A stretch of 6,567 bases of DNA, taken from a virus. Its lineage: Duplodnaviria; Heunggongvirae; Uroviricota; Caudoviricetes. The stretch is from the IMG/VR virus record IMGVR_UViG_2681813316_000019, positions 1 through 6,567 of that record, one strand, 5' to 3'. Shown here one piece after another: positions 1-6,567 of this stretch. Positions within the stretch are counted from its first letter, which is position 1, and the number at the start of each line of letters is the position of its first letter. The position numbers and the translations under genes were made by a program. A model generated the notes under the pieces. That model was not told the DNA's origin. It saw only the letters and a program-made list of their open reading frames with translations, and ran no database searches.

Positions 1-140
1 CTATCGGCGAAGGTGAGTTGATGGCTCATGATGTCCCTCTGGGATGCGCTCCGGATGAATATGATGATCTCATATCAGGAACTTGTTCGCACCTTCCCTA
101 ACTAACACTACGTTTCACACAGCAATTACATGGAAATAAC

Positions 141-488
141 ATGACTATCAAAGCGACTGACATAGAGATTCTTCATCGTTATGCTGAAGGGGTAATGGAA
201 CGTTCTAACCATCATGCAAAAAATGTTGGTGCAGCCGCTCTTACATTGCTAGGAGGTGTTATCTGGAAAGCCCTGCCCGGATCAATCGAGATAAGAACGT
301 ATAACGGAAGTCTTGCAAATATGGTGTGGTGGCAAAGCGAAAGAACATTAAAAAATTATGCAATCTCATACAACCATAATTCATGTGAAATTGAAATGAG
401 AGATGAATCAGTCAAAAGTGCTGTATTATTTAGCATTTCCAACGAAACCACTCCAGAAAAAATATTATCACAGCTTTCTGAGCTTTAA
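141..488 (+). CDS. Hypothetical protein (115 aa), family not recognised; oriented opposite to the adjacent replication operon
   Basis: Intact ATG-initiated ORF 141..488 from the ORF track. Hand count of sample lines gives roughly 40% G+C against about 50% in P/O. No motif I can assign. Sits beyond the 3' end of P where lambda has ren/nin genes, but on the other strand. Confidence 0.45.
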   Translation: MTIKATDIEILHRYAEGVMERSNHHAKNVGAAALTLLGGVIWKALPGSIEIRTYNGSLANMVWWQSERTLKNYAISYNHNSCEIEMRDESVKSAVLFSISNETTPEKILSQLSEL

Positions 489-493
489 TTAAA

Positions 494-511
494 GGCGGTG
501 CTAACACCGCC
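494..511. terminator. GC-rich hairpin (GGCGGTG-CTAA-CACCGCC) between the convergent ORF 141..488 and gene P; possible bidirectional terminator
   Basis: Perfect 7-bp inverted repeat with 4-nt loop seen directly. On the minus strand it is followed by TTTAATTAAA (partly U-rich); on the plus strand the tail is not U-rich. Placed between two convergent genes. Confidence 0.35.
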
Positions 512-692
512 CATACCATTACTCCACATCTTACGCAACTTGATAATTATGCTCTATTAAATACCCACAATATTTCATCAATGCATGGGTCAGCTACAAA
601 ATGTTTACCGTGGTAATTCCTGTTTTCGCAACATCTCAAAAGAACAATAAACACTGTATTTCTTCAAGTAACGAAGAATCTTTCTTTGCCCG

Positions 693-1394
693 TCATACAC
701 TTGCTCCTTTCAGCCCAAACTTAGCTTTGATTTCTGCGATCTTCGCCAGAGCCTGTGCACGATTTAGAGGTCTACCGCCCATAACAGGAAGTTGTTTTAC
801 TGGTTCAGGTATCGTCTCACCACGGTTAATTCGCGCTGTCATACAGGTCAGTTCATCGGCAGCCTTGCGCCGTAATTCCGCGTCAGTCAGCGCATTGGCC
901 CGCATGTTCTGGTACAGGTTGGTAACCAGCCAGTAGTGCGCGTTTGATTTCCATGGATAAGACTCTGCATCCGGATAAAGGCCACGCTTCCGGCAATACT
1001 CGTAAACCATATCAACCAGCTCGCTGGCGTTTGGCAGCCCGGCGTTAACGGATGCTTCTTCCCGGCACCAGGCGACAAACTGCCCGGGTGATGGCAGGAA
1101 TGGTCGATTCTGCCGACGGGCTACGCGCATTCCTGCGTTAACCTGTTCCATTGTGGTGATCCCGTTTTCCCGGAAAGCCAGAACCCACTGGCGGCGGATT
1201 TCGTTCAGTTCGTTCTGGTCACGGTTAGCCAGGCTCGCCGGGAAAGTTGCCAGTAACTGGCTGAACACACCGTTGATGATCTGCGCTACCTGCTGTACCT
1301 GCGGCTTTTCGTCGTACTGTTCCGGCATGTTGTTGGCGATCCGGCGCATCTGCTCACGGTCAAAGTTAACCATCTGTGCGGCGATGTTTTTCAT
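693..1394 (-). CDS. P: Replication protein P (DnaB helicase loader), lambda-type
   Basis: 233-aa translation matches phage lambda P as I remember it almost residue for residue along its whole length (MKNIAAQMVNFDREQMRRIANNMPEQYDEKPQV...AKIAEIKAKFGLKGASV). ATG at 1392-1394 overlaps the TGA stop of the upstream O gene (ATGA). Confidence 0.95.
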   Translation of the reverse strand: MKNIAAQMVNFDREQMRRIANNMPEQYDEKPQVQQVAQIINGVFSQLLATFPASLANRDQNELNEIRRQWVLAFRENGITTMEQVNAGMRVARRQNRPFLPSPGQFVAWCREEASVNAGLPNASELVDMVYEYCRKRGLYPDAESYPWKSNAHYWLVTNLYQNMRANALTDAELRRKAADELTCMTARINRGETIPEPVKQLPVMGGRPLNRAQALAKIAEIKAKFGLKGASV

Positions 1395-2320
1395 AAATCC
1401 ACCCCGTAAATCCAGTCAGTGTTTGTCAGGTCGAGTTTTGATTTTCCGGTTGTCACGCCAGCCTGTTGCTTGTTACGGTTGATTTCGAGTTGGGTCCACT
1501 TGTCGCGGAGTTTGGCCGGACTCAGCACGTTACCGGACCAGAAGTTGTCCTGGCATGCCCAGCGGAACAGCACGCACATGTCGCGGTGGTTACGTCCGTC
1601 ACGTTCACGCATCAGGCGGATATCGTTAGCCCACCCTGCAAAATTCGGTTTTCTGGCTGATGGTGCGATGGTCTTCACCATGTCAAACATCCACTCTGCG
1701 GCGGTCAGGTCTTCTGCTGTCCCCCACTTGCTGCCGCTCTGAATCGCAGCATCCGGTTTCACCACAGGAAGGTCGTTTTCTGGCTGGTCAGAGTATTCGC
1801 CAGAATTCTCGGACGAATAAGGTTTTATATTGTCTTTTGTTAGTTTGTCTTTTGTGTTTACCTGATTCGGGTAAGTGCCTTTACCTGATTTGGGTAAACT
1901 TTTCTTACCTGATTCAGGTAAATTTACCTCTTTCAGGTAAACTTTATTTTTCTTACCTGATTCGGGTAATGTTGACCATTCACTGACCACATTATTAATG
2001 CCGATATTCCGCCCGCTCTGAATAAAAATCCCACGCTTTACCAGAACACTTTTTGCAGCAGAACACTTGTGCGGCAATATCCCGGTCAACTCGGAAAGTT
2101 GCTCGTTGCTCACCCAATCCAGTTTTTTATTAAAGCCATATGTTTTGCGCATGACAGCCAGGAAGACCAGAAGCTGGTGCTGTGTTAATCCGGCCAGCAT
2201 CACAGCTTCCAGCAACTCATTTGCAATGCGCGTATAACCATCATCGAGATCTGCCACGCGCGGCTCCTTTTGTGCCACATCCGGCACTGGAAAATTGAAT
2301 ATCTCAGCAGTGTTTGCCAT
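1391..2320 (-). CDS. O: Replication initiator protein O (origin-binding); C-terminal domain lambda-like, N-terminal DNA-binding region divergent
   Basis: C-terminal about 60 aa (RDMCVLFRWACQDNFWSGNVLSPAKLRDKWTQLEINRNKQQAGVT...LDLTNTDWIYGVDL) matches lambda O closely; the N-terminus MANTAEIFNF resembles lambda O MTNTAKILNF. Start chosen at the ATG at 2318-2320 because it is preceded by GGGAGGAATT (strong SD). The ORF-track extension to 2410 adds 30 residues with no RBS and would overlap the upstream gene. Iterons lie inside the coding region, as in lambda. Confidence 0.9.
   Translation of the reverse strand: MANTAEIFNFPVPDVAQKEPRVADLDDGYTRIANELLEAVMLAGLTQHQLLVFLAVMRKTYGFNKKLDWVSNEQLSELTGILPHKCSAAKSVLVKRGIFIQSGRNIGINNVVSEWSTLPESGKKNKVYLKEVNLPESGKKSLPKSGKGTYPNQVNTKDKLTKDNIKPYSSENSGEYSDQPENDLPVVKPDAAIQSGSKWGTAEDLTAAEWMFDMVKTIAPSARKPNFAGWANDIRLMRERDGRNHRDMCVLFRWACQDNFWSGNVLSPAKLRDKWTQLEINRNKQQAGVTTGKSKLDLTNTDWIYGVDL
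1858..1969. repeat. Origin of replication: five 17-bp iterons (consensus TTACCTGATTCGGGTAA, arms TTACC/GGTAA) inside gene O, with an AT-rich segment at about 1806-1857 on the O-downstream side
   Basis: Seen directly: copies start at 1858, 1881, 1905, 1924 and 1953, each an imperfect palindrome TTACC-N7-GGTAA. The flanking segment 1811-1860 is strongly A+T-rich. Architecture matches ori-lambda (iterons then AT-rich region within O), but the iteron sequence is not the lambda one. Confidence 0.8.
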
Positions 2321-2406
2321 AATTCCTCCCGCAATGAGTGCGTTACGATTTGCACCTGAAAGTCGGCTCTGTTCCCGCAGACCGGCTTTCGCCATTTCTG
2401 AGCCTG

Positions 2407-2952
2407 TCATATTGCCCCCAACATGGTGGTAACCATCGCCATCAATGGACCAGCCAGATCCGGGTCCACACGAAACATCGACACAATACCTTCACTAATT
2501 TCCTTCAGTTTCTGGTGGCGTGGTGCGTTGAGAATGACTGCCTGTTTTGCCTCACTGAGTTCCTTTTCCATTTCAGCCAACCTAGCCATGAAGCTATCCT
2601 GCTCAACCAGGTAACCGCGATATTCCAGCGGTAGTACCGCTAGAATTGCCGGGGTCAGTTCACGCACGTTATTTCGGTATTTTTCAGAATCGAATTTGTT
2701 ATCGAGGAAGCGGAACAGCTTCTGGCGTGCACGGCTGACATCATCAGGGAAATCGATGGCGCCGCCGCCCTGCTCCCGATACTCATTCACAATGAGTGTG
2801 GCAACGACATCCTGATTATCTTCAGCCGACCAGGCGCGGACGGCATCACGGATTTTTTCGTGGCCTGGCACCTGTTTTGTTTGAGAACGATTTATCACCG
2901 CAGTCGGGCTAAATCCGCTAGTCTGTTGGTATGTAAGTGGTTGCATAGTCAT
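2407..2952 (-). CDS. YdaT-like protein at the cII position (function uncertain)
   Basis: 181-aa ORF immediately downstream (24-bp gap) of the Cro-like gene and upstream of O. Segments NEYREQGGG and TPAILAVLPLEYR resemble the Rac-prophage YdaT family as I remember it, which is why I call it YdaT-like. True start may be the second ATG (2944-2946), which has better spacing to an AAGG. Confidence 0.55.
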   Translation of the reverse strand: MTMQPLTYQQTSGFSPTAVINRSQTKQVPGHEKIRDAVRAWSAEDNQDVVATLIVNEYREQGGGAIDFPDDVSRARQKLFRFLDNKFDSEKYRNNVRELTPAILAVLPLEYRGYLVEQDSFMARLAEMEKELSEAKQAVILNAPRHQKLKEISEGIVSMFRVDPDLAGPLMAMVTTMLGAI

Positions 2953-2976
2953 TGCCTTATCAGTTAACGCCGCAGT

Positions 2977-3204
2977 TTAGGCGGCAGAATTACTCGCGTT
3001 AAACAATGGTGCGAGGTCGGGACGAATATCTGCTGGTTTAATCTTTCCACCAGTGGCTGAGACAATTTTCATTACATAGCGGGCATCAATTCCGCCACCG
3101 TGTAGCCAACGCCAAACTGTGGGTTGGGCTACACCGCATAGATCTGCCAGTCGTTTTTGACTACCTGTAATACTGATTGCGAGTTGAATGGTTTGATTTG
3201 TCAT
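2977..3204 (-). CDS. Cro-like small HTH regulator (YdaS-like)
   Basis: 76 aa from the ATG at 3202-3204 (the ORF-track start at 3210 is a TTG). HTH segment GSQKRLADLCGVAQPTVWRW and the downstream IRPDL motif resemble YdaS/Cro-type regulators. Divergent from the repressor gene across a 110-bp operator region. AGGA lies 8 nt upstream. Confidence 0.75.
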   Translation of the reverse strand: MTNQTIQLAISITGSQKRLADLCGVAQPTVWRWLHGGGIDARYVMKIVSATGGKIKPADIRPDLAPLFNASNSAA

Positions 3205-3314
3205 TATCAATTCCTATTGGTATTGCAATGAATGAATAATAGCAATGCGTATTAATCCAAGTAATAGCAAAACGTGTTTTGACCATCAATACGCAAGCGT
3301 ATAAATTAAAACTT
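3205..3314. promoter_or_regulatory. Divergent immunity control region (OR-like): repeated operator motif TAATAGCAA(T) and candidate PR and PRM promoters
   Basis: TAATAGCAAT at 3237-3246 and TAATAGCAA at 3262-3270, plus a related palindromic ATTGCAAT at 3222-3229. Candidate PRM on plus strand: TTGAC(C) 3279-3284, about 16 bp, TATAAA 3300-3305, placing the transcription start at or just before the repressor ATG at 3315. Candidate PR on minus strand: TTGATG (plus coords 3284-3289), 17 bp, TATTAC (3261-3266). Promoter hexamers are by eye, not scored. Confidence 0.55.
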
Positions 3315-4007
3315 ATGAAAAAAGAAACTCTTGCTGATCGCTTAAACCTAGCGATGGAACAATCTGGAATGTCTCAAGGCGCTCTTGCAAAGGCGTCTGG
3401 CGTAGCTCAACCCACAATCTGGAGACTGACAAGCGGCAACGCGCGCGGCTCAACAAAAATTGTTGAAATAGCTAATGCATTGGGTGTTCGAACAGAATGG
3501 CTCTCATCAGGCATAGGCCCGATGAGAAATGACGGTCAACAATCAGGGAAGCCTGCTGTCAGCCATTCAAAATACTTCAAGATTGACGTTCTTGATATAG
3601 AAGTCAGTGCCGGGCCGGGTGTAATCAACCGTGAGTTTGTAGAAGTTCTACGCTCGGTTGAGTACTCGTTTGACGATGCTCGTCACATGTTCGATGGCAG
3701 GAAGGCGGAAAATATCCGCATCATTAACGTGCGTGGTGACAGCATGTCAGGAACGATCGAACCAGGTGATCTTCTGTTCGTTGATATCACGGTTAAATCT
3801 TTCGACGGTGATGGTATCTATGCGTTTCTGTATGACGACACAGCCCATGTAAAGCGCCTGCAAATGATGAAGGATAAGCTGCTGGTTATCTCTGATAACA
3901 AGAGCTACTCACCGTGGGACCCGATCGAGAAAGACGAGATGAACCGGGTATTCATCTTCGGGAAAGTCATCGGAAGCATGCCGCAGACGTATAGGAAGCA
4001 TGGGTAG
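3315..4007 (+). CDS. CI-type prophage repressor: N-terminal HTH_XRE domain plus C-terminal LexA-like S24 peptidase (autocleavable, SOS-inducible type)
   Basis: HTH MSQGALAKASGVAQPTIWRLTSG; candidate Ala-Gly cleavage site in EVSAGPGV; catalytic Ser motif VRGDSMSG and Lys in AHVKRL, as in LexA and lambda CI. Start set at the ATG at 3315 (MKKETL...); the ORF-track start at 3279 is a TTG. No SD precedes 3315. Confidence 0.85.
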   Translation: MKKETLADRLNLAMEQSGMSQGALAKASGVAQPTIWRLTSGNARGSTKIVEIANALGVRTEWLSSGIGPMRNDGQQSGKPAVSHSKYFKIDVLDIEVSAGPGVINREFVEVLRSVEYSFDDARHMFDGRKAENIRIINVRGDSMSGTIEPGDLLFVDITVKSFDGDGIYAFLYDDTAHVKRLQMMKDKLLVISDNKSYSPWDPIEKDEMNRVFIFGKVIGSMPQTYRKHG

Positions 4008-4118
4008 TGAAGGACGTGTCAACTCTATTTTGTAAGCTATCCAGACTCACAGTTGCAGATCGACGAGTAACTTACATACAGCACAAAAAAACAATATGCG
4101 AGTGCTTTTAGACTAGAC

Positions 4119-4133
4119 TTACCATAATGGTAA
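4119..4133. promoter_or_regulatory. 15-bp palindrome TTACCAT-A-ATGGTAA overlapping the first ATG of the toxin-like gene; candidate operator for the module
   Basis: Perfect 7-bp arms seen directly. Resembles the ACCT-N-AGGT type palindromes bound by MqsA-family antitoxins (from memory). Position at the 5' end of the three-gene module. Confidence 0.35.
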
Positions 4134-4537
4134 CAAGTATGATTCTTAGCAGATATGTGGGAACTCCTCCCCGTGATGGCGAGGACAGAAAGATTCAAGG
4201 TGGTCCGCTTTATTTAGATATCATTGATTTGATTGATGAATGTGACACACTGCCTTGGACTAAACGGTGTATCAGGGATGTTCAATCGCTTTCTTTAGAT
4301 GCAGATGACATCAAATCTATGGTGATAAAAGCAGTCACTAAAGGGAGATTTCTAGGTTCAGAATGGTGTCAAGGCAGTAAACCAGGTGTATGGGCAGCTT
4401 GTGATGCTTATAGCTTTGAGCACTCATTTTGGTGCCAAGCTATGCATAAAGAACTTAATAACGAGTTCTACATTAAATTTTTTGTAAACATTACTGGCAA
4501 TGTAGTGCTTACAGTATCTCTTCATCTCTCTAATTGA
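4127..4537 (+). CDS. MqsR-like toxin (RelE-superfamily mRNA interferase fold), putative toxin of a TAC module
   Basis: 136-aa ORF. C-terminal half (DDIKSMVIKAV...WCQAMHKELNNEFYIKFFVNITGNVVLTVSLHLSN) aligns by eye with E. coli MqsR (DFYKSMTT...YLKITVIHDVLIVSFKEK). Toxin-first gene order matches mqsR-mqsA. About 25 N-terminal residues are extra; an alternative start is ATG 4139. No clear SD. Confidence 0.55.
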   Translation: MVTSMILSRYVGTPPRDGEDRKIQGGPLYLDIIDLIDECDTLPWTKRCIRDVQSLSLDADDIKSMVIKAVTKGRFLGSEWCQGSKPGVWAACDAYSFEHSFWCQAMHKELNNEFYIKFFVNITGNVVLTVSLHLSN

Positions 4538-4561
4538 GTGATGATAAATGAGGATTTTTAT

Positions 4562-5149
4562 ATGAGAAACAACAACATATGTCCAGTTTGTGGTGTAGGT
4601 CATCTCACCGTGGAGATGGAGTATGATGATGTTACTTATAAAGGGGAAACAAAAAATCTCCCAATAAGGTTTTCTGTGTGTGATCAATGTGGTTCGGAAA
4701 CTGCCACACCAGTCGATTTACGAGAAAACAAACGAATTTTCAATGAATACAAAAAGTCTATCGATGGACTTTTAACAGGAAAAGAATTAAAAAAAATTAG
4801 AACTGAAGTATGGATGATAACCCAGCAAAAGGCATCCTCTATATTTGGTGGGGGGCCTAAGGCATTTTCCAAGTATGAATCTGATGATGTCATTCAATCA
4901 GAAGCAATGGATAAACTGATGCGTTTAGCAGCAGAAGTTCCTGATGCATTCAAAAGGTTACGGGAATTATCTGGCGAAATCAAAGTTGAAAGAACAGTCT
5001 CATCATCTAAATCTTTACCTATATGGAAATCTGAAGCAAAAGCACAATTTGAAAACGATGATCAGGGATTTGACAGCAAATCACCAGCCCAAACAAAAAT
5101 GAATCAAACATCAATAAAGATAAAAACTGTTGCTAAGCGGGTAGCATGA
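4562..5149 (+). CDS. MqsA-like antitoxin: N-terminal zinc ribbon (CPVC...CDQC) plus HTH_XRE domain, with a C-terminal extension of about 55-60 aa
   Basis: ICPVCGVGH...CDQCGSE resembles the MqsA Zn-binding domain (MKCPVCHQGE...YCVHCEE). ITQQKASSIFGGGPKAFSKYESDD matches the MqsA HTH region LTQKEASEIFGGGVNAFSRYEKGN. Start placed at ATG 4562, preceded by GAGGA with a 7-nt spacer; the ORF-track start at 4538 is GTG. The protein is about 65 aa longer than E. coli MqsA, mostly at the C-terminus. Confidence 0.75.
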   Translation: MRNNNICPVCGVGHLTVEMEYDDVTYKGETKNLPIRFSVCDQCGSETATPVDLRENKRIFNEYKKSIDGLLTGKELKKIRTEVWMITQQKASSIFGGGPKAFSKYESDDVIQSEAMDKLMRLAAEVPDAFKRLRELSGEIKVERTVSSSKSLPIWKSEAKAQFENDDQGFDSKSPAQTKMNQTSIKIKTVAKRVA

Positions 5150-5649
5150 TGAATGAACTTCTTAGATCAGCAATAGACGCATTATCAATAATGCATATCA
5201 ATATCAGAGAATCTAACTTTGCTTTTTCTGAAGGGTATAATAGCTTTAACTTCAACAGCATAAATAAGCAAACACAATCATTTCGTAAGATAAAAAAAAT
5301 CGAAGCTATTGAATTAGTAAGTGACGATGACTCATTAAAAAATGAGCTATATTACTCTTTTCACTACTCAGTTGGGCTTAGATTTATTGCAAAATCCGAA
5401 GAAACATCTAAAGACGAAAATGATGTTGATACAATTTTTTCTATAGAAGCAATTTTTGAGGCGATATATCGCTCAAAAAGAGAATTATCTAAAGAAGAGT
5501 TAGAAGAATTTGCTAAGCAAAATGTAGGTTTTAATGTATGGCCTTTTTGGCGAGAGTATGTTCAAAACAGCACATCCAGAATGGGAATTACTACAATAGC
5601 TATACCATTCTTTAAATTCAATAAATCAGACATACCTTCATTAGATTAA
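5146..5649 (+). CDS. SecB-like chaperone, putative third component of a TAC module
   Basis: 167 aa. C-terminal segment FNVWPFWREYVQNSTSRMGITTIAIPFFKF matches the conserved SecB segment [34 protein letters not shown]; IFSI and an acidic central region also align. Start ATG overlaps the antitoxin stop (ATGA at 5146-5149), suggesting translational coupling. Hand-counted G+C on one sample line is about one third. Confidence 0.6.
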   Translation: MMNELLRSAIDALSIMHINIRESNFAFSEGYNSFNFNSINKQTQSFRKIKKIEAIELVSDDDSLKNELYYSFHYSVGLRFIAKSEETSKDENDVDTIFSIEAIFEAIYRSKRELSKEELEEFAKQNVGFNVWPFWREYVQNSTSRMGITTIAIPFFKFNKSDIPSLD

Positions 5650-5663
5650 ATTCAAATATAACT

Positions 5664-5690
5664 CCCGGCTACCGTGCCGGGTTTTCTTTT
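5664..5690 (+). terminator. Rho-independent terminator ending the repressor-side operon (t_imm equivalent)
   Basis: CCCGGC-TACCGT-GCCGGG hairpin (6-bp GC stem) followed directly by TTTTCTTTT, 15 bp after the stop of the SecB-like gene. Confidence 0.8.
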
Positions 5691-5780
5691 GTCCCCTCCC
5701 CTCATCACACACCGTTCAAAAAACCACCACGACCTCACTTCAGTTATCGCTATGCGATGCAAGTCACAAAATTAATTCTT

Positions 5781-5860
5781 TTTGCTATCAAACATTTAAT
5801 ATCAAAACACATCAACTAATAGCAATAAGTATTGATATCACCAATAGCAATAGCTATTAT
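5781..5860 (+). promoter_or_regulatory. OL/PL-like region: operator motif copies shared with the OR region, overlapping a candidate sigma70 promoter for the leftward early operon
   Basis: TAATAGCAAT at 5817-5826 (exact 10-mer also at 3237-3246), AATAGCAAT at 5843-5851 adjoining palindrome AATAGCTATT (5849-5858), and reverse-oriented TTTGCTAT at 5781-5788. Candidate promoter: TTGATA 5832-5837, 17-bp spacer, TATTAT 5855-5860, with operator copies in the spacer. Confidence 0.55.
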
Positions 5861-6137
5861 CACCATATCGCAACAACACAACGATACGGCAACCACCTGA
5901 TTCACCGTTGCGATGACCGCTTAGATCCGCAGCTTGAATTTCAGCAGGCTTCGGGGAGTGCGAGGGATGAAACGGACGCGTGAACGTCGGTGTGACCAGC
6001 TGAAATCAACTCAACATTTCATACCTTAGTCGCTTCAACGAGGCGGCTTAGTTATGACAACCGGCGGCCATCCACCGCCTGAATACGCGCAGAAGTCTTT
6101 ATATGTTCAGCAGCCCAGCTTACGGGCAGGAGTTTTT

Positions 6138-6344
6138 ATGGTTCATCAACATTACGGAACGCAGACCGTTAATCGCGGTGCGGTCATGCCAGGAATGCTG
6201 GTCAAACGCAAAGATGGTACCTGGACTGCATCAGCTAATTTACGCGGACGACTTTATCTGCATCGCGGCATTGAGCGCACTTATACCCGTGACTTGCTCG
6301 TGGAAGTTTTTCTCGACGGACGCGGTAACGGCCTCAATCACTAA
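6138..6344 (+). CDS. Hypothetical small early protein (68 aa from ATG 6138), upstream of gam
   Basis: ATG 6138 is preceded by AGGAG with a 5-nt spacer. The frame is open back to 6030 (ORF track starts it at ATG 6054, 96 aa). Composition looks protein-like. No family recognised. Confidence 0.35.
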
Positions 6345-6419
6345 TCCCCTTTCCTGTTTTCCTAATCAGCCTGGCATTTCGCGGGCGATATTTTCACAGC
6401 CATTTTCAGGAGTTCAGCC

Positions 6420-6567
6420 ATGAACGCTTATTACATTCAGGATCGTCTTGAGGCTCAGAGCTGGGCGCGTCACTACCAGCAGATCGCCCGTGAAGAGAAA
6501 GAGGCAGAACTGGCAGACGACATGGAAAAAGGCCTGCCCCAGCACCTGTTTGAATCGCTATGCATCG
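6420..6567 (+). CDS. gam: Host-nuclease (RecBCD) inhibitor Gam, 5' portion only (continues past window end)
   Basis: Translation [49 protein letters not shown] matches the lambda Gam (GamS form) N-terminus as I remember it, with one conservative difference. AGGAG lies 7 nt upstream of the ATG. The window ends at 6567 inside the gene. Confidence 0.9.

Follow-up and report, generated by a model that had tools for sequence, protein, structure and literature searches.

The replication initiator O of lambdoid phages has been a textbook example of two-domain design since the late 1970s (1978–79), together with an origin located inside its own gene and with intragenic hybrids that are viable. Phage 82 carries five repeats in its origin, ori82. 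The same principle of two domains and hybrid proteins is reportedly set out in a 2002 article by Wrobel and Wegrzyn, 'Evolution of lambdoid replication modules'. PMC6022878 presents the two-domain model along with hybrid O proteins made between lambda and 82 or phi80 (citing Furth & Yates 1978): ori specificity resides in the N-terminus and compatibility with P in the C-terminus, and crossovers within O generate functional hybrids. A role of the O C-terminal domain in P binding is described in the same source (PMC6022878). The lambda origin is made up of iterons and a 38-bp high-AT region (PMC3349717).

The window analyzed here is a stretch of 6,567 nucleotides, positions 1 to 6,567 of IMG/VR virus record IMGVR_UViG_2681813316_000019 (Caudoviricetes). 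It carries the features of a lambdoid O/P module, namely a PF04492 domain, five intragenic iterons where such modules have at least four, an A/T-rich region, and a lambda-type C-terminus with an overlapping PF06992 gene (Table 1). Its iterons and its N-terminal domain place it outside the ori-lambda specificity group (rep-lambda: lambda, 434 and 21), and it agrees with the module of Klebsiella phage GZ7 in N-terminal and iteron type but not in C-terminus or loader, the latter being lambda P in the window.

With a probability of about 0.88, the locus can be read as a working-type lambdoid theta-replication module composed of two exchangeable units whose junction would lie at the origin's A/T-rich core. 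One unit would consist of the N-terminal Phage_rep_O domain and five 17-bp inverted-repeat iterons, its putative binding sites; the other would comprise the lambda-type O linker and C-terminal domain and the P gene, and would recruit host DnaB. By analogy with lambda, dimers of the N-terminal domain would assemble on the iterons and distort the DNA, the adjoining A/T-rich core would open, the lambda-type C-terminal domain would dock P-DnaB, and host chaperones would free DnaB.

Anatomy of O and position of the breakpoint

Comparison with lambda by blastn gave a single match of 1175 bp with 94.9% identity, aligning window 1857..683 with lambda 39119..40293, where lambda 39119 is the base following lambda iteron 4. 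No DNA similarity to lambda 39034–39118 was detected in the window by blastn. In 60-nt windows along O, identity to lambda was 38–68% up to window 1841, then 88%, and then 92–98%. The initial annotation had described the gene as a mosaic with a discrete breakpoint, and this was borne out: alignment along O revealed a step change instead of uniform divergence from lambda, identity rising from about 40–60% to about 96–98% within a few tens of bases where the iterons meet the A/T-rich core (window 1857–1820). Its statement that P and the C-terminal part of O are nearly identical to lambda also proved accurate, with 227/233 amino acids and 667/702 nucleotides identical in P and 138/145 residues (95%) identical over O residues 165–309, a segment sharing only 17% identity with GZ7 O. 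The ATG of P overlaps the O stop codon as ATGA at 1391–1394.

Table 1. Coordinates of the features of the O–P module in the window.
Feature	Position	Strand	Basis or remark
Lambda-like block, spanning A/T-rich core, linker and C-terminal domain of O, P, and 10 nt past P stop	683..1857	(-)	blastn
P gene, 233 aa, coding for a DnaB helicase loader of lambda type	693..1394	(-)	Pfam Phage_lambda_P (PF06992), E=7.6e-62
O gene (replication initiator), 309 aa, origin internal	1391..2320	(-)	ORF list
O codons 167–309: linker and C-terminal (P-interacting) domain of lambda type	1391..1820	(-)	lambda comparison
Crossover interval, O codons about 165–167	about 1820..1833	(-)	sequence switch from GZ7/P22 to lambda
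A/T-rich core ACACAAAAGACA-AACTA-ACAAAAGA, presumed unwinding element	1833..1857	(-)	common to lambda, window, GZ7 and P22
Iteron 5, adjoining A/T-rich core	1858..1874	.	read as TYPNQVN
Iteron 4	1881..1897	.	read as LPKSGK
Iteron 3	1905..1921	.	read as LPESGK
Iteron 2	1924..1940	.	read as VYLKEVN
Iteron 1, extra copy, farthest from A/T-rich core	1953..1969	.	read as LPESGK
Phage_rep_O (PF04492) origin-binding domain of O	1976..2260	(-)	residues 21–115, E=7.4e-34, full profile length (Pfam)
Shine-Dalgarno GGGAGG (2325–2330), AATT spacer, O start codon (2318–2320)	2318..2330	(-)	read from sequence, conserved in GZ7 and K6

Residues 1–116 of O showed 48% amino acid identity to lambda O. Over residues 11–116, identity was 46% to lambda and 85% to GZ7, and P22 gp18 showed 52% against the N-terminal half; the records of 434 and 21 scored 46.2% against the query, equal to lambda. 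On sequence grounds, the Phage_rep_O domain of O in the window is assigned to a non-lambda specificity type. The alignments proposed for locating the breakpoint and its donor succeeded for the breakpoint (Table 1) but named no donor among lambda, 434 and 21, all of which have a lambda-type N-terminus. The closest relatives of the N-terminal half and the iterons were the Klebsiella phages GZ7 and 6 LV-2017 (about 80–85%). A PDB sequence search with O returned no relatives and thus no structural template for iteron recognition.

The first 10 residues of O, initially regarded as a piece derived from lambda, turned out to be closer to GZ7 (8/10 aa, 24/30 nt) than to lambda (7/10 aa, 21/30 nt), and on these first 30 nucleotides a second junction after residue 10 was rejected. 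The sole match to lambda 5' of the blastn block was a 23-nt island at 2257–2235, 100% identical, which corresponds to the codons of VADLDDGY. One reading of this island was a functional DNA element, but constraint on the protein explains it more simply, since the motif is kept in GZ7 and is nearly identical in P22 gp18 (VAELDDGY).

An O start at 2320 is supported by the conservation of the Shine-Dalgarno/start sequence, kept as GGAG(G/T)AATTATG among relatives, and by an in-frame stop 8 codons 5' of the start in the Klebsiella relatives. In the GenBank records of related phages O is annotated as a 339-aa protein from the upstream ATG at 2410, a form that these two features disfavor; it retains some plausibility because its start overlaps the ydaT stop as ATGA.

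Inside O, 3' of the N-terminal domain, lie five exact TTACC-N7-GGTAA inverted repeats (1858–1969), where 0.10 sites would be expected by chance; five were reached in 0/200 shuffles. The count of five, against the four iterons of the lambda annotation, had been given correctly from the start. These repeats do not conform to the lambda iteron consensus ATCCCTCAAAACGAGGGA. Iteron 1 coincides with 10 codons inserted in comparison with lambda O, and in GZ7 this copy is degenerate; the spacing of iterons 2–5 is 19/24/23 nt as compared to 20/24/23 nt for lambda iterons 1–4. A full-text search of the literature for four iteron strings found none of them. Across 106 IMG/VR loci and 4 reference sequences, N-terminal type and iteron type corresponded one-to-one for the five major types, and this co-variation justifies the earlier description of the iterons as matching the N-terminal domain. 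We infer that the iterons are bound by the N-terminal Phage_rep_O domain of O.

The A/T-rich core and the shuffling of modules

The A/T-rich core of the window, ACACAAAAGACAAACTAACAAAAGA at 1857–1833, begins at the base adjoining iteron 5, and the same core is found in lambda. In its general form, ACACAAAAGACA-N4-5-ACAAAAGA, it lies directly 3' of the last iteron in all four origin types, and the motif was present in at least 120 IMG/VR contigs. The window tracks GZ7/P22 up to ...ACAAAAGACAATA (1828) and lambda from TTATTCG (1820) onwards; similarity to Klebsiella phage 6 LV-2017 stops at window 1828 as well. The crossover maps to the end of the A/T-rich core common to the four origin types. 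Being conserved across otherwise unrelated origin types, the core can serve as a homology patch for recombination.

Shuffling of the flanking modules was observed in a sample of 106 IMG/VR viral contigs chosen for carrying the core motif. Combinations of left-hand and right-hand modules in these loci include lambda-type with lambda-type (30), window-type with lambda-type (26) and window/GZ7-type with GZ7-type (12), and the lambda-type N-terminus was also found joined to other right-hand modules, labelled u5 and u7. Similarity began or ended 0–16 nt from the core motif in 12/14 cluster combinations, a clustering of breakpoints that is supportive and not statistical proof, since the loci were selected by motif and locus pairs are phylogenetically non-independent.

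The chimeric O gene was present in 2242/5426 complete E. coli genomes (about 41%). A lambda-type C-terminus was found in 3213 complete E. coli genomes, 2242 of them with the chimera, and the window-type N-terminus was joined to a lambda-type C-terminus in 2242/2284. The rarity or direction that the initial annotation had implied for the chimera is not supported, for in E. coli genomes the lambda-type C-terminus is joined to the window-type N-terminus more often than to any other. The chances seem about even that the ~25-bp A/T-rich core, besides being the unwinding element, is a conserved universal joint at which enterobacterial temperate phages exchange modules combinatorially, at least five N-terminus/iteron types on one side and, on the other, several types of C-terminus and partner, which may be lambda P, a DnaC-type loader or a DnaB-type helicase, the chimera of the window being the most successful combination in E. 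coli. If true, this would provide a quantifiable case of a functional DNA element acting also as a module-boundary linker.

Alternative readings of the module

The contrast between the two halves of O could in principle have arisen in a single lambda-like gene, without recombination, if the N-terminal domain and the iterons had co-evolved fast while the C-terminus and P remained constrained. The N-terminal domains are indeed homologous (48% aa identity, one Pfam domain), and the A/T-rich core and the iteron spacing are conserved. Such uneven divergence is nevertheless very improbable: with synonymous sites counted in, nucleotide identity climbs from about 40–60% to 96–98% within tens of bases; in its nearest relatives the N-terminal half is joined to non-homologous C-termini and accompanied by other partner genes; and several left-by-right combinations exist, incongruence of the O halves having already been seen. 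Harder still to credit is the proposal that the five repeats are kept for an encoded peptide, as a protein repeat of the O linker, rather than as DNA binding sites. DNA repeat and peptide repeat had initially been taken as one and the same, and this applies to the three of five copies that encode LP(E/K)SGK. The remaining two carry the same 17-bp palindrome in another frame and encode unrelated peptides, (V/T)Y(L/P)(K/N)(E/Q)VN, and translation of the copies in two different frames indicates conservation of the iterons as DNA, not as peptide. Every copy is also an inverted repeat placed at the position and spacing of the lambda O-binding iterons, and iteron type co-varies with the type of the N-terminal DNA-binding domain.

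Granting that two units were joined at the core, the polarity of the event could be the reverse, with the window arrangement or its ancestor as the common form and lambda O as the recombinant that acquired a new N-terminus and iterons. The genome counts given above point that way, and lambda could equally be called the mosaic because the lambda-type C-terminus of E. coli genomes occurs most often in the chimera of the window. Prevalence gives no polarity, however, the lambda-type N-terminus also has its u5 and u7 combinations, and both forms are members of one combinatorial pool; we consider reverse polarity quite conceivable, at somewhat below even odds. A separate matter is whether a cryptic prophage has left the module at this locus as an inactive remnant. 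An IS5-family end occupies window 1–96, on the 3' side of P, and right after P an unrelated convergent ORF stands in place of ren, so this copy could belong to a prophage in decay; the early-left region resembles that of Rac, and Kil lies immediately 3' of the presumed pL. By contrast, the ORFs of O and P are intact over their full length and retain conserved signals, 5/5 iterons match the palindrome pattern exactly, and modules about 97% identical are carried in sequenced phage records, all of which make an inactive remnant unlikely, though well short of negligible.

Comparison with known systems

The O/P module of the window is real and was correctly read; as a prophage replication origin it is ordinary and widespread. 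It carries little weight as a discovery, the O design, the internal origin and the intragenic hybrids being long textbook matter. For annotation, it places the O start at 2320 and not at 2410, and allows the five iterons and the A/T-rich core to be marked. It also shows that lambda P is used by a second ori specificity class, one that is very common, offers a clean natural case of recombination at a conserved origin element, and could inform predictions of replicon incompatibility or exclusion between co-resident prophages.

The window shares with lambda the O–P order, the ATGA overlap, the origin inside O, and a near-equal iteron spacing followed by the same A/T-rich core; identity between the two reaches 95% in the O linker/C-terminus and 97% in P. 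Whereas lambda has four iterons of its own consensus and cII upstream of O, the window has five TTACC-N7-GGTAA iterons, an N-terminal domain 48% identical to that of lambda, and a YdaT-type CII equivalent as the upstream neighbor of O. The N-terminal unit travels with adjacent Rac-like immunity genes. A pO-like promoter match is present. An oop-like terminator, by comparison with lambda, is not evident: a terminator scan of 1700–3400 found none, and Rfam searches of the whole window gave no matches at E<=0.1 and hence no oop-like family. With no terminator in 1700–3400, the promoter match is what there is to suggest an oop-like antisense RNA.

In the Klebsiella phages GZ7, 6 LV-2017 and ST11-VIM1phi8.2, the N-terminal domain is 85% identical to that of the O protein of the window, and iterons of the same type occupy equal gene coordinates (381, 400, 424, 447) and are followed by the same A/T-rich core. 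Their first iteron is degenerate, unlike that of the window, the O C-terminus is unrelated (17–22% identity), and an IstB/DnaC-type AAA+ loader takes the place of P. P22 gene 18 likewise has a Phage_rep_O N-terminus (52%), TTACC/GGTAA-like half-sites in intragenic iterons and the same A/T-rich core; it differs in the shorter spacers within its iterons, in its C-terminus, and in its partner gp12 (gene 12), which is a DnaB-type helicase and not a loader.

The same chimeric O, five iterons and P, about 97–99% identical at the nucleotide level, are found in PhiR26_1, PhiR70_1, Lambda_4C10, 4A7, 1W, 3W, Perceval, Turner and others, and in prophages of about 41% of complete E. coli genomes. About 16 sequenced phages have the whole O–P module at about 97% identity, and for several of them an E. 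coli laboratory host is listed. Many deposited records of phages and of E. coli already contain this exact chimera in annotated form. In the PhiR26_1 group P is mostly followed by ren, in place of which the window has a different segment and the IS5 end; within O–P these records show only point differences, and the genes are annotated as encoding replication proteins O and P.

Discrete break in identity to lambda within O

A blastn comparison with lambda returned a single match of 1175 bp (94.9%; window 1857..683, lambda 39119..40293), starting one base past lambda iteron 4 and ending 10 nt beyond the stop of P, the DnaB helicase loader gene. Upstream of it, the sole matching piece was a 23-nt island (2257-2235) of VADLDDGY codons. 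Along the gene of the replication initiator O, identity in 60-nt windows stayed at 38-68% as far as window 1841 and then rose to 88% and to 92-98%, evidencing a discrete break and excluding uniform divergence. In the protein, identity to lambda was 48% for residues 1-116, 18% for residues 117-154 (encoded by the iteron stretch) and 95% for residues 165-309, and P was identical at 227 of 233 positions. The initial annotation had proposed a mosaic O in which a non-lambda N-terminus and iterons precede a C-terminus that, like P, matches lambda; this is upheld by the step in identity and by Klebsiella phage and P22 relatives carrying other C-termini. By contrast, its implication that the first ten residues of O are lambda-like was not sustained: they match lambda at 7/10 amino acids and 21/30 nt, versus 8/10 and 24/30 for a Klebsiella relative.

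An A/T-rich core, ACACAAAAGACA-N4-5-ACAAAAGA, lies directly after the last iteron and is common to all four origin types. The window tracks P22 and the Klebsiella phage GZ7 through ...GACAATA, to position 1828, where megablast similarity with Klebsiella phage 6 LV-2017 also stops, independently; it tracks lambda unbroken from TTATTCG, position 1820, downwards. Combined, these similarities place the crossover in the O linker at codons 165-167, window ~1820-1833. This linker has been described as flexible (PMC6022878).

Five exact TTACC-N7-GGTAA iterons were counted, all in a single stretch (0.10 expected; 0/200 shuffles reached five), which a repeat finder placed in one group with start-to-start spacings of 23, 24, 19 and 29 nt (+ strand). 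As lambda has four annotated iterons (39034-39118; iteron 4, 39101-39118), the initial count of five versus four was right. The further claim that DNA repeat and peptide repeat coincide is correct for iterons 1, 3 and 4, which read LPESGK, LPESGK and LPKSGK in the O frame, and fails for iterons 2 and 5, which are offset by two bases and read VYLKEVN and TYPNQVN; this shifted frame shows that conservation of the palindrome acts on the DNA. A literature search turned up no paper in which this iteron sequence is printed.

Recurrence of the break at the A/T-rich core

The core motif was scanned in IMG/VR, matching at least 120 contigs. Among the matches listed, 106 loci had 480-nt flanks, and left (N-terminus and iterons) and right (C-terminus) flanks were clustered separately. 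Left/right combinations were lambda/lambda (30 loci), window/lambda (26), window or GZ7/GZ7 (12), u2/u2 (12), u3/GZ7 (7), P22/u2 (5), u3/u3 (2) and lambda with each of two other right types (one locus each), u2 and u3 being further flank clusters; nine rarer combinations held the remaining 10. Among these same matches, pairs of loci sharing right and differing in left flanks became similar at a median of 0 to -8 nt relative to the motif's first base in 5/5 cluster combinations. Pairs sharing left and differing in right flanks ceased to be similar -16 to +16 nt (median) from its last base in 7/9, the two exceptions being a second break that lies ~277 nt deeper and an artefact of the clustering. 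When the left flank was split, N-terminal coding type and iteron type corresponded one-to-one for the five major types listed, whose palindromes are distinct (TTACC..GGTAA, the lambda type, GTCAC..GTGAC, TTAGC..GCTAA and TTTAC..GTAAA). Such clustering of breakpoints, in loci ascertained on the motif and compared as non-independent pairs, is supportive of the core acting as a general swap point.

In other Phage_rep_O-type genes (e.g. loci L006, L007 and L020), at least three further palindromes (TGTCAC..GTGACA, TTAGC..GCTAA, TTTAC..GTAAA) were seen upstream of the same core. A few IMG/VR loci among the matches listed combine the iteron type of the window (type 0) with N-terminal coding sequence from a diverged cluster, a hint that the N-terminal domain itself contains additional breakpoints.

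Of 5426 complete E. coli genomes, 2284 contained the N-terminus-plus-iteron segment (coverage of at least 80%), with the chimeric O gene in 2242 and the lambda-type C-terminal segment in 3213. With 2242 chimeras against 3213 lambda-type C-termini, the chimera is the setting in which E. coli most often carries the lambda-type C-terminus and P; these counts carry no direction of exchange.

Start of O and the surrounding early region

Related GenBank records give a 339-aa O from ATG 2410, overlapping the ydaT stop as ATGA. The start at 2320, assumed initially, is favoured by a conserved GGAG(G/T)AATTATG, by homology of the resulting N-terminus to lambda (MANTAE... versus MTNTAK...) and by an in-frame stop 8 codons upstream in both Klebsiella relatives, suggesting that the extra 30 codons (2321-2410, minus strand) are an annotation over-extension. 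A promoter-like sequence, TTGAAT-17-CATAAT with a TG upstream, is oriented antisense to O; its -10 hexamer overlaps the O start codon, which is where lambda has its oop promoter, pO. A stable 14-bp hairpin follows downstream (region z-score -3.0) and shows partial conservation in 6 LV-2017; at this hairpin neither a U-tract terminator nor an Rfam match was found.

In the ORF list, most genes of the window, which is a lambdoid early region, lie on the minus strand.

Features of the window
Feature	Position	Strand	Match or remark
IS5-family element end	first ~96 bases		abuts CTAA
Segment replacing ren	97-692		directly past P stop
Convergent 115-aa ORF	141-488	+	Pfam VCH_CASS14 integron-cassette family, E=3.8e-19; phrog_5959
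P	693-1394	-	Pfam Phage_lambda_P, E=7.6e-62
O	1391-2320	-	Pfam Phage_rep_O at residues 21-115, E=7.4e-34
A/T-rich core	1857-1833
Iterons	1858-1969
Promoter-like site	2295-2323	+
14-bp hairpin	2358-2390	+
YdaT-family protein, 181 aa	2407-2952	-
YdaS/Cro-type repressor	2977-3204	-
S24/LexA-type CI repressor	3315-4007	+
Three-gene cassette	4127-5649	+
 gene 1, 136 aa		+	no family match
 gene 2, MqsA-family antitoxin, 195 aa		+	TIGR03830, E=6e-33; ~60 aa longer than profile
 gene 3, 167 aa, weakly SecB-like		+	Pfam SecB, E=0.008 (below cutoff); PDB 5mtw_C 'SecB-like chaperone Rv1957', E=0.011
Kil/FtsZ-inhibitor ORF	6138-6344	+	phrog_294, E=1.5e-36
ea10-like gene, presumed start	6420		after Kil ORF

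The immunity and early-left genes (2407-3210, minus; 6138-6567, plus) are Rac-like and not lambda-like: Cro is of YdaS type, the CII equivalent is of YdaT type, and Kil is present. In some lambdoid prophages, YdaT has been documented to take the functional place of CII (PMC9986795, PMC5917428). No N-like antiterminator gene was recognised within the window. The three-gene cassette, which occupies the lambda rexAB position between cI and the presumed pL, is a candidate prophage toxin-antitoxin-chaperone (TAC) system. The segment replacing ren is, next to P, 99.8% identical in 181 E. coli genomes, O26 and O103 strains included, an arrangement absent from related sequenced phages. The IS5-family end is 100% identical to ISKpn26-type copies on >4000 plasmids and occurs at as many as 43 sites in a single E. 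coli genome.

Comparison with known replication modules

By analogy with the established lambda initiation model (PMC6022878, PMC3349717, PMC7466680), N-terminal dimers of O would bind the iterons, the A/T-rich region would then open, and the C-terminal domain would next recruit P-DnaB. A sequence search found no O structure. PMC6022878 and PMC3349717 credit Furth & Yates 1978, Moore et al. 1979 and Grosschedl & Hobom 1979 with the assignment of ori specificity to the N-terminus and P compatibility to the C-terminus, and with functional intra-O hybrids. Public records of phages and genomes already contain the exact O-P sequence, with its genes labelled O and P; the mosaic module is real, as initially interpreted, and ordinary. 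Phage 82 probably carries five repeats together with a C-terminus compatible with lambda, and the same two-domain principle was reportedly treated by Wrobel & Wegrzyn in 2002.

Iterons 2-5 of the window keep the lambda spacing (19/24/23 versus 20/24/23 nt). The additional copy lies farthest from the A/T-rich core and corresponds to a 10-codon insertion relative to lambda; in this it is similar to the extra iterons at the distal end in Stx phages (PMC7466680).

Only ~16 E. coli phage records have an N-terminus >90% identical, all being the same chimera. Next in similarity come Klebsiella phages (GZ7, 6 LV-2017, ST11-VIM1phi8.2 and others; ~80% nt, 80-85% aa), which share N-terminal type and iterons, at identical gene coordinates (381, 400, 424, 447), but differ in an unrelated C-terminus (17-22% identity). 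Downstream of its O, GZ7 encodes an IstB/DnaC-type AAA+ loader (Pfam), the corresponding gene of 6 LV-2017 being annotated DnaC. P22 gene 18 has an N-terminus 52% identical to that of the window and iterons with related half-sites, its partner being the DnaB-type helicase gp12, whereas lambda, 434 and 21 all have a lambda-type N-terminus (46%). Since the partners in the window, the Klebsiella phages and P22 differ, one N-terminus/iteron lineage occurs with three C-terminus/partner solutions, which is the signature of domain shuffling.
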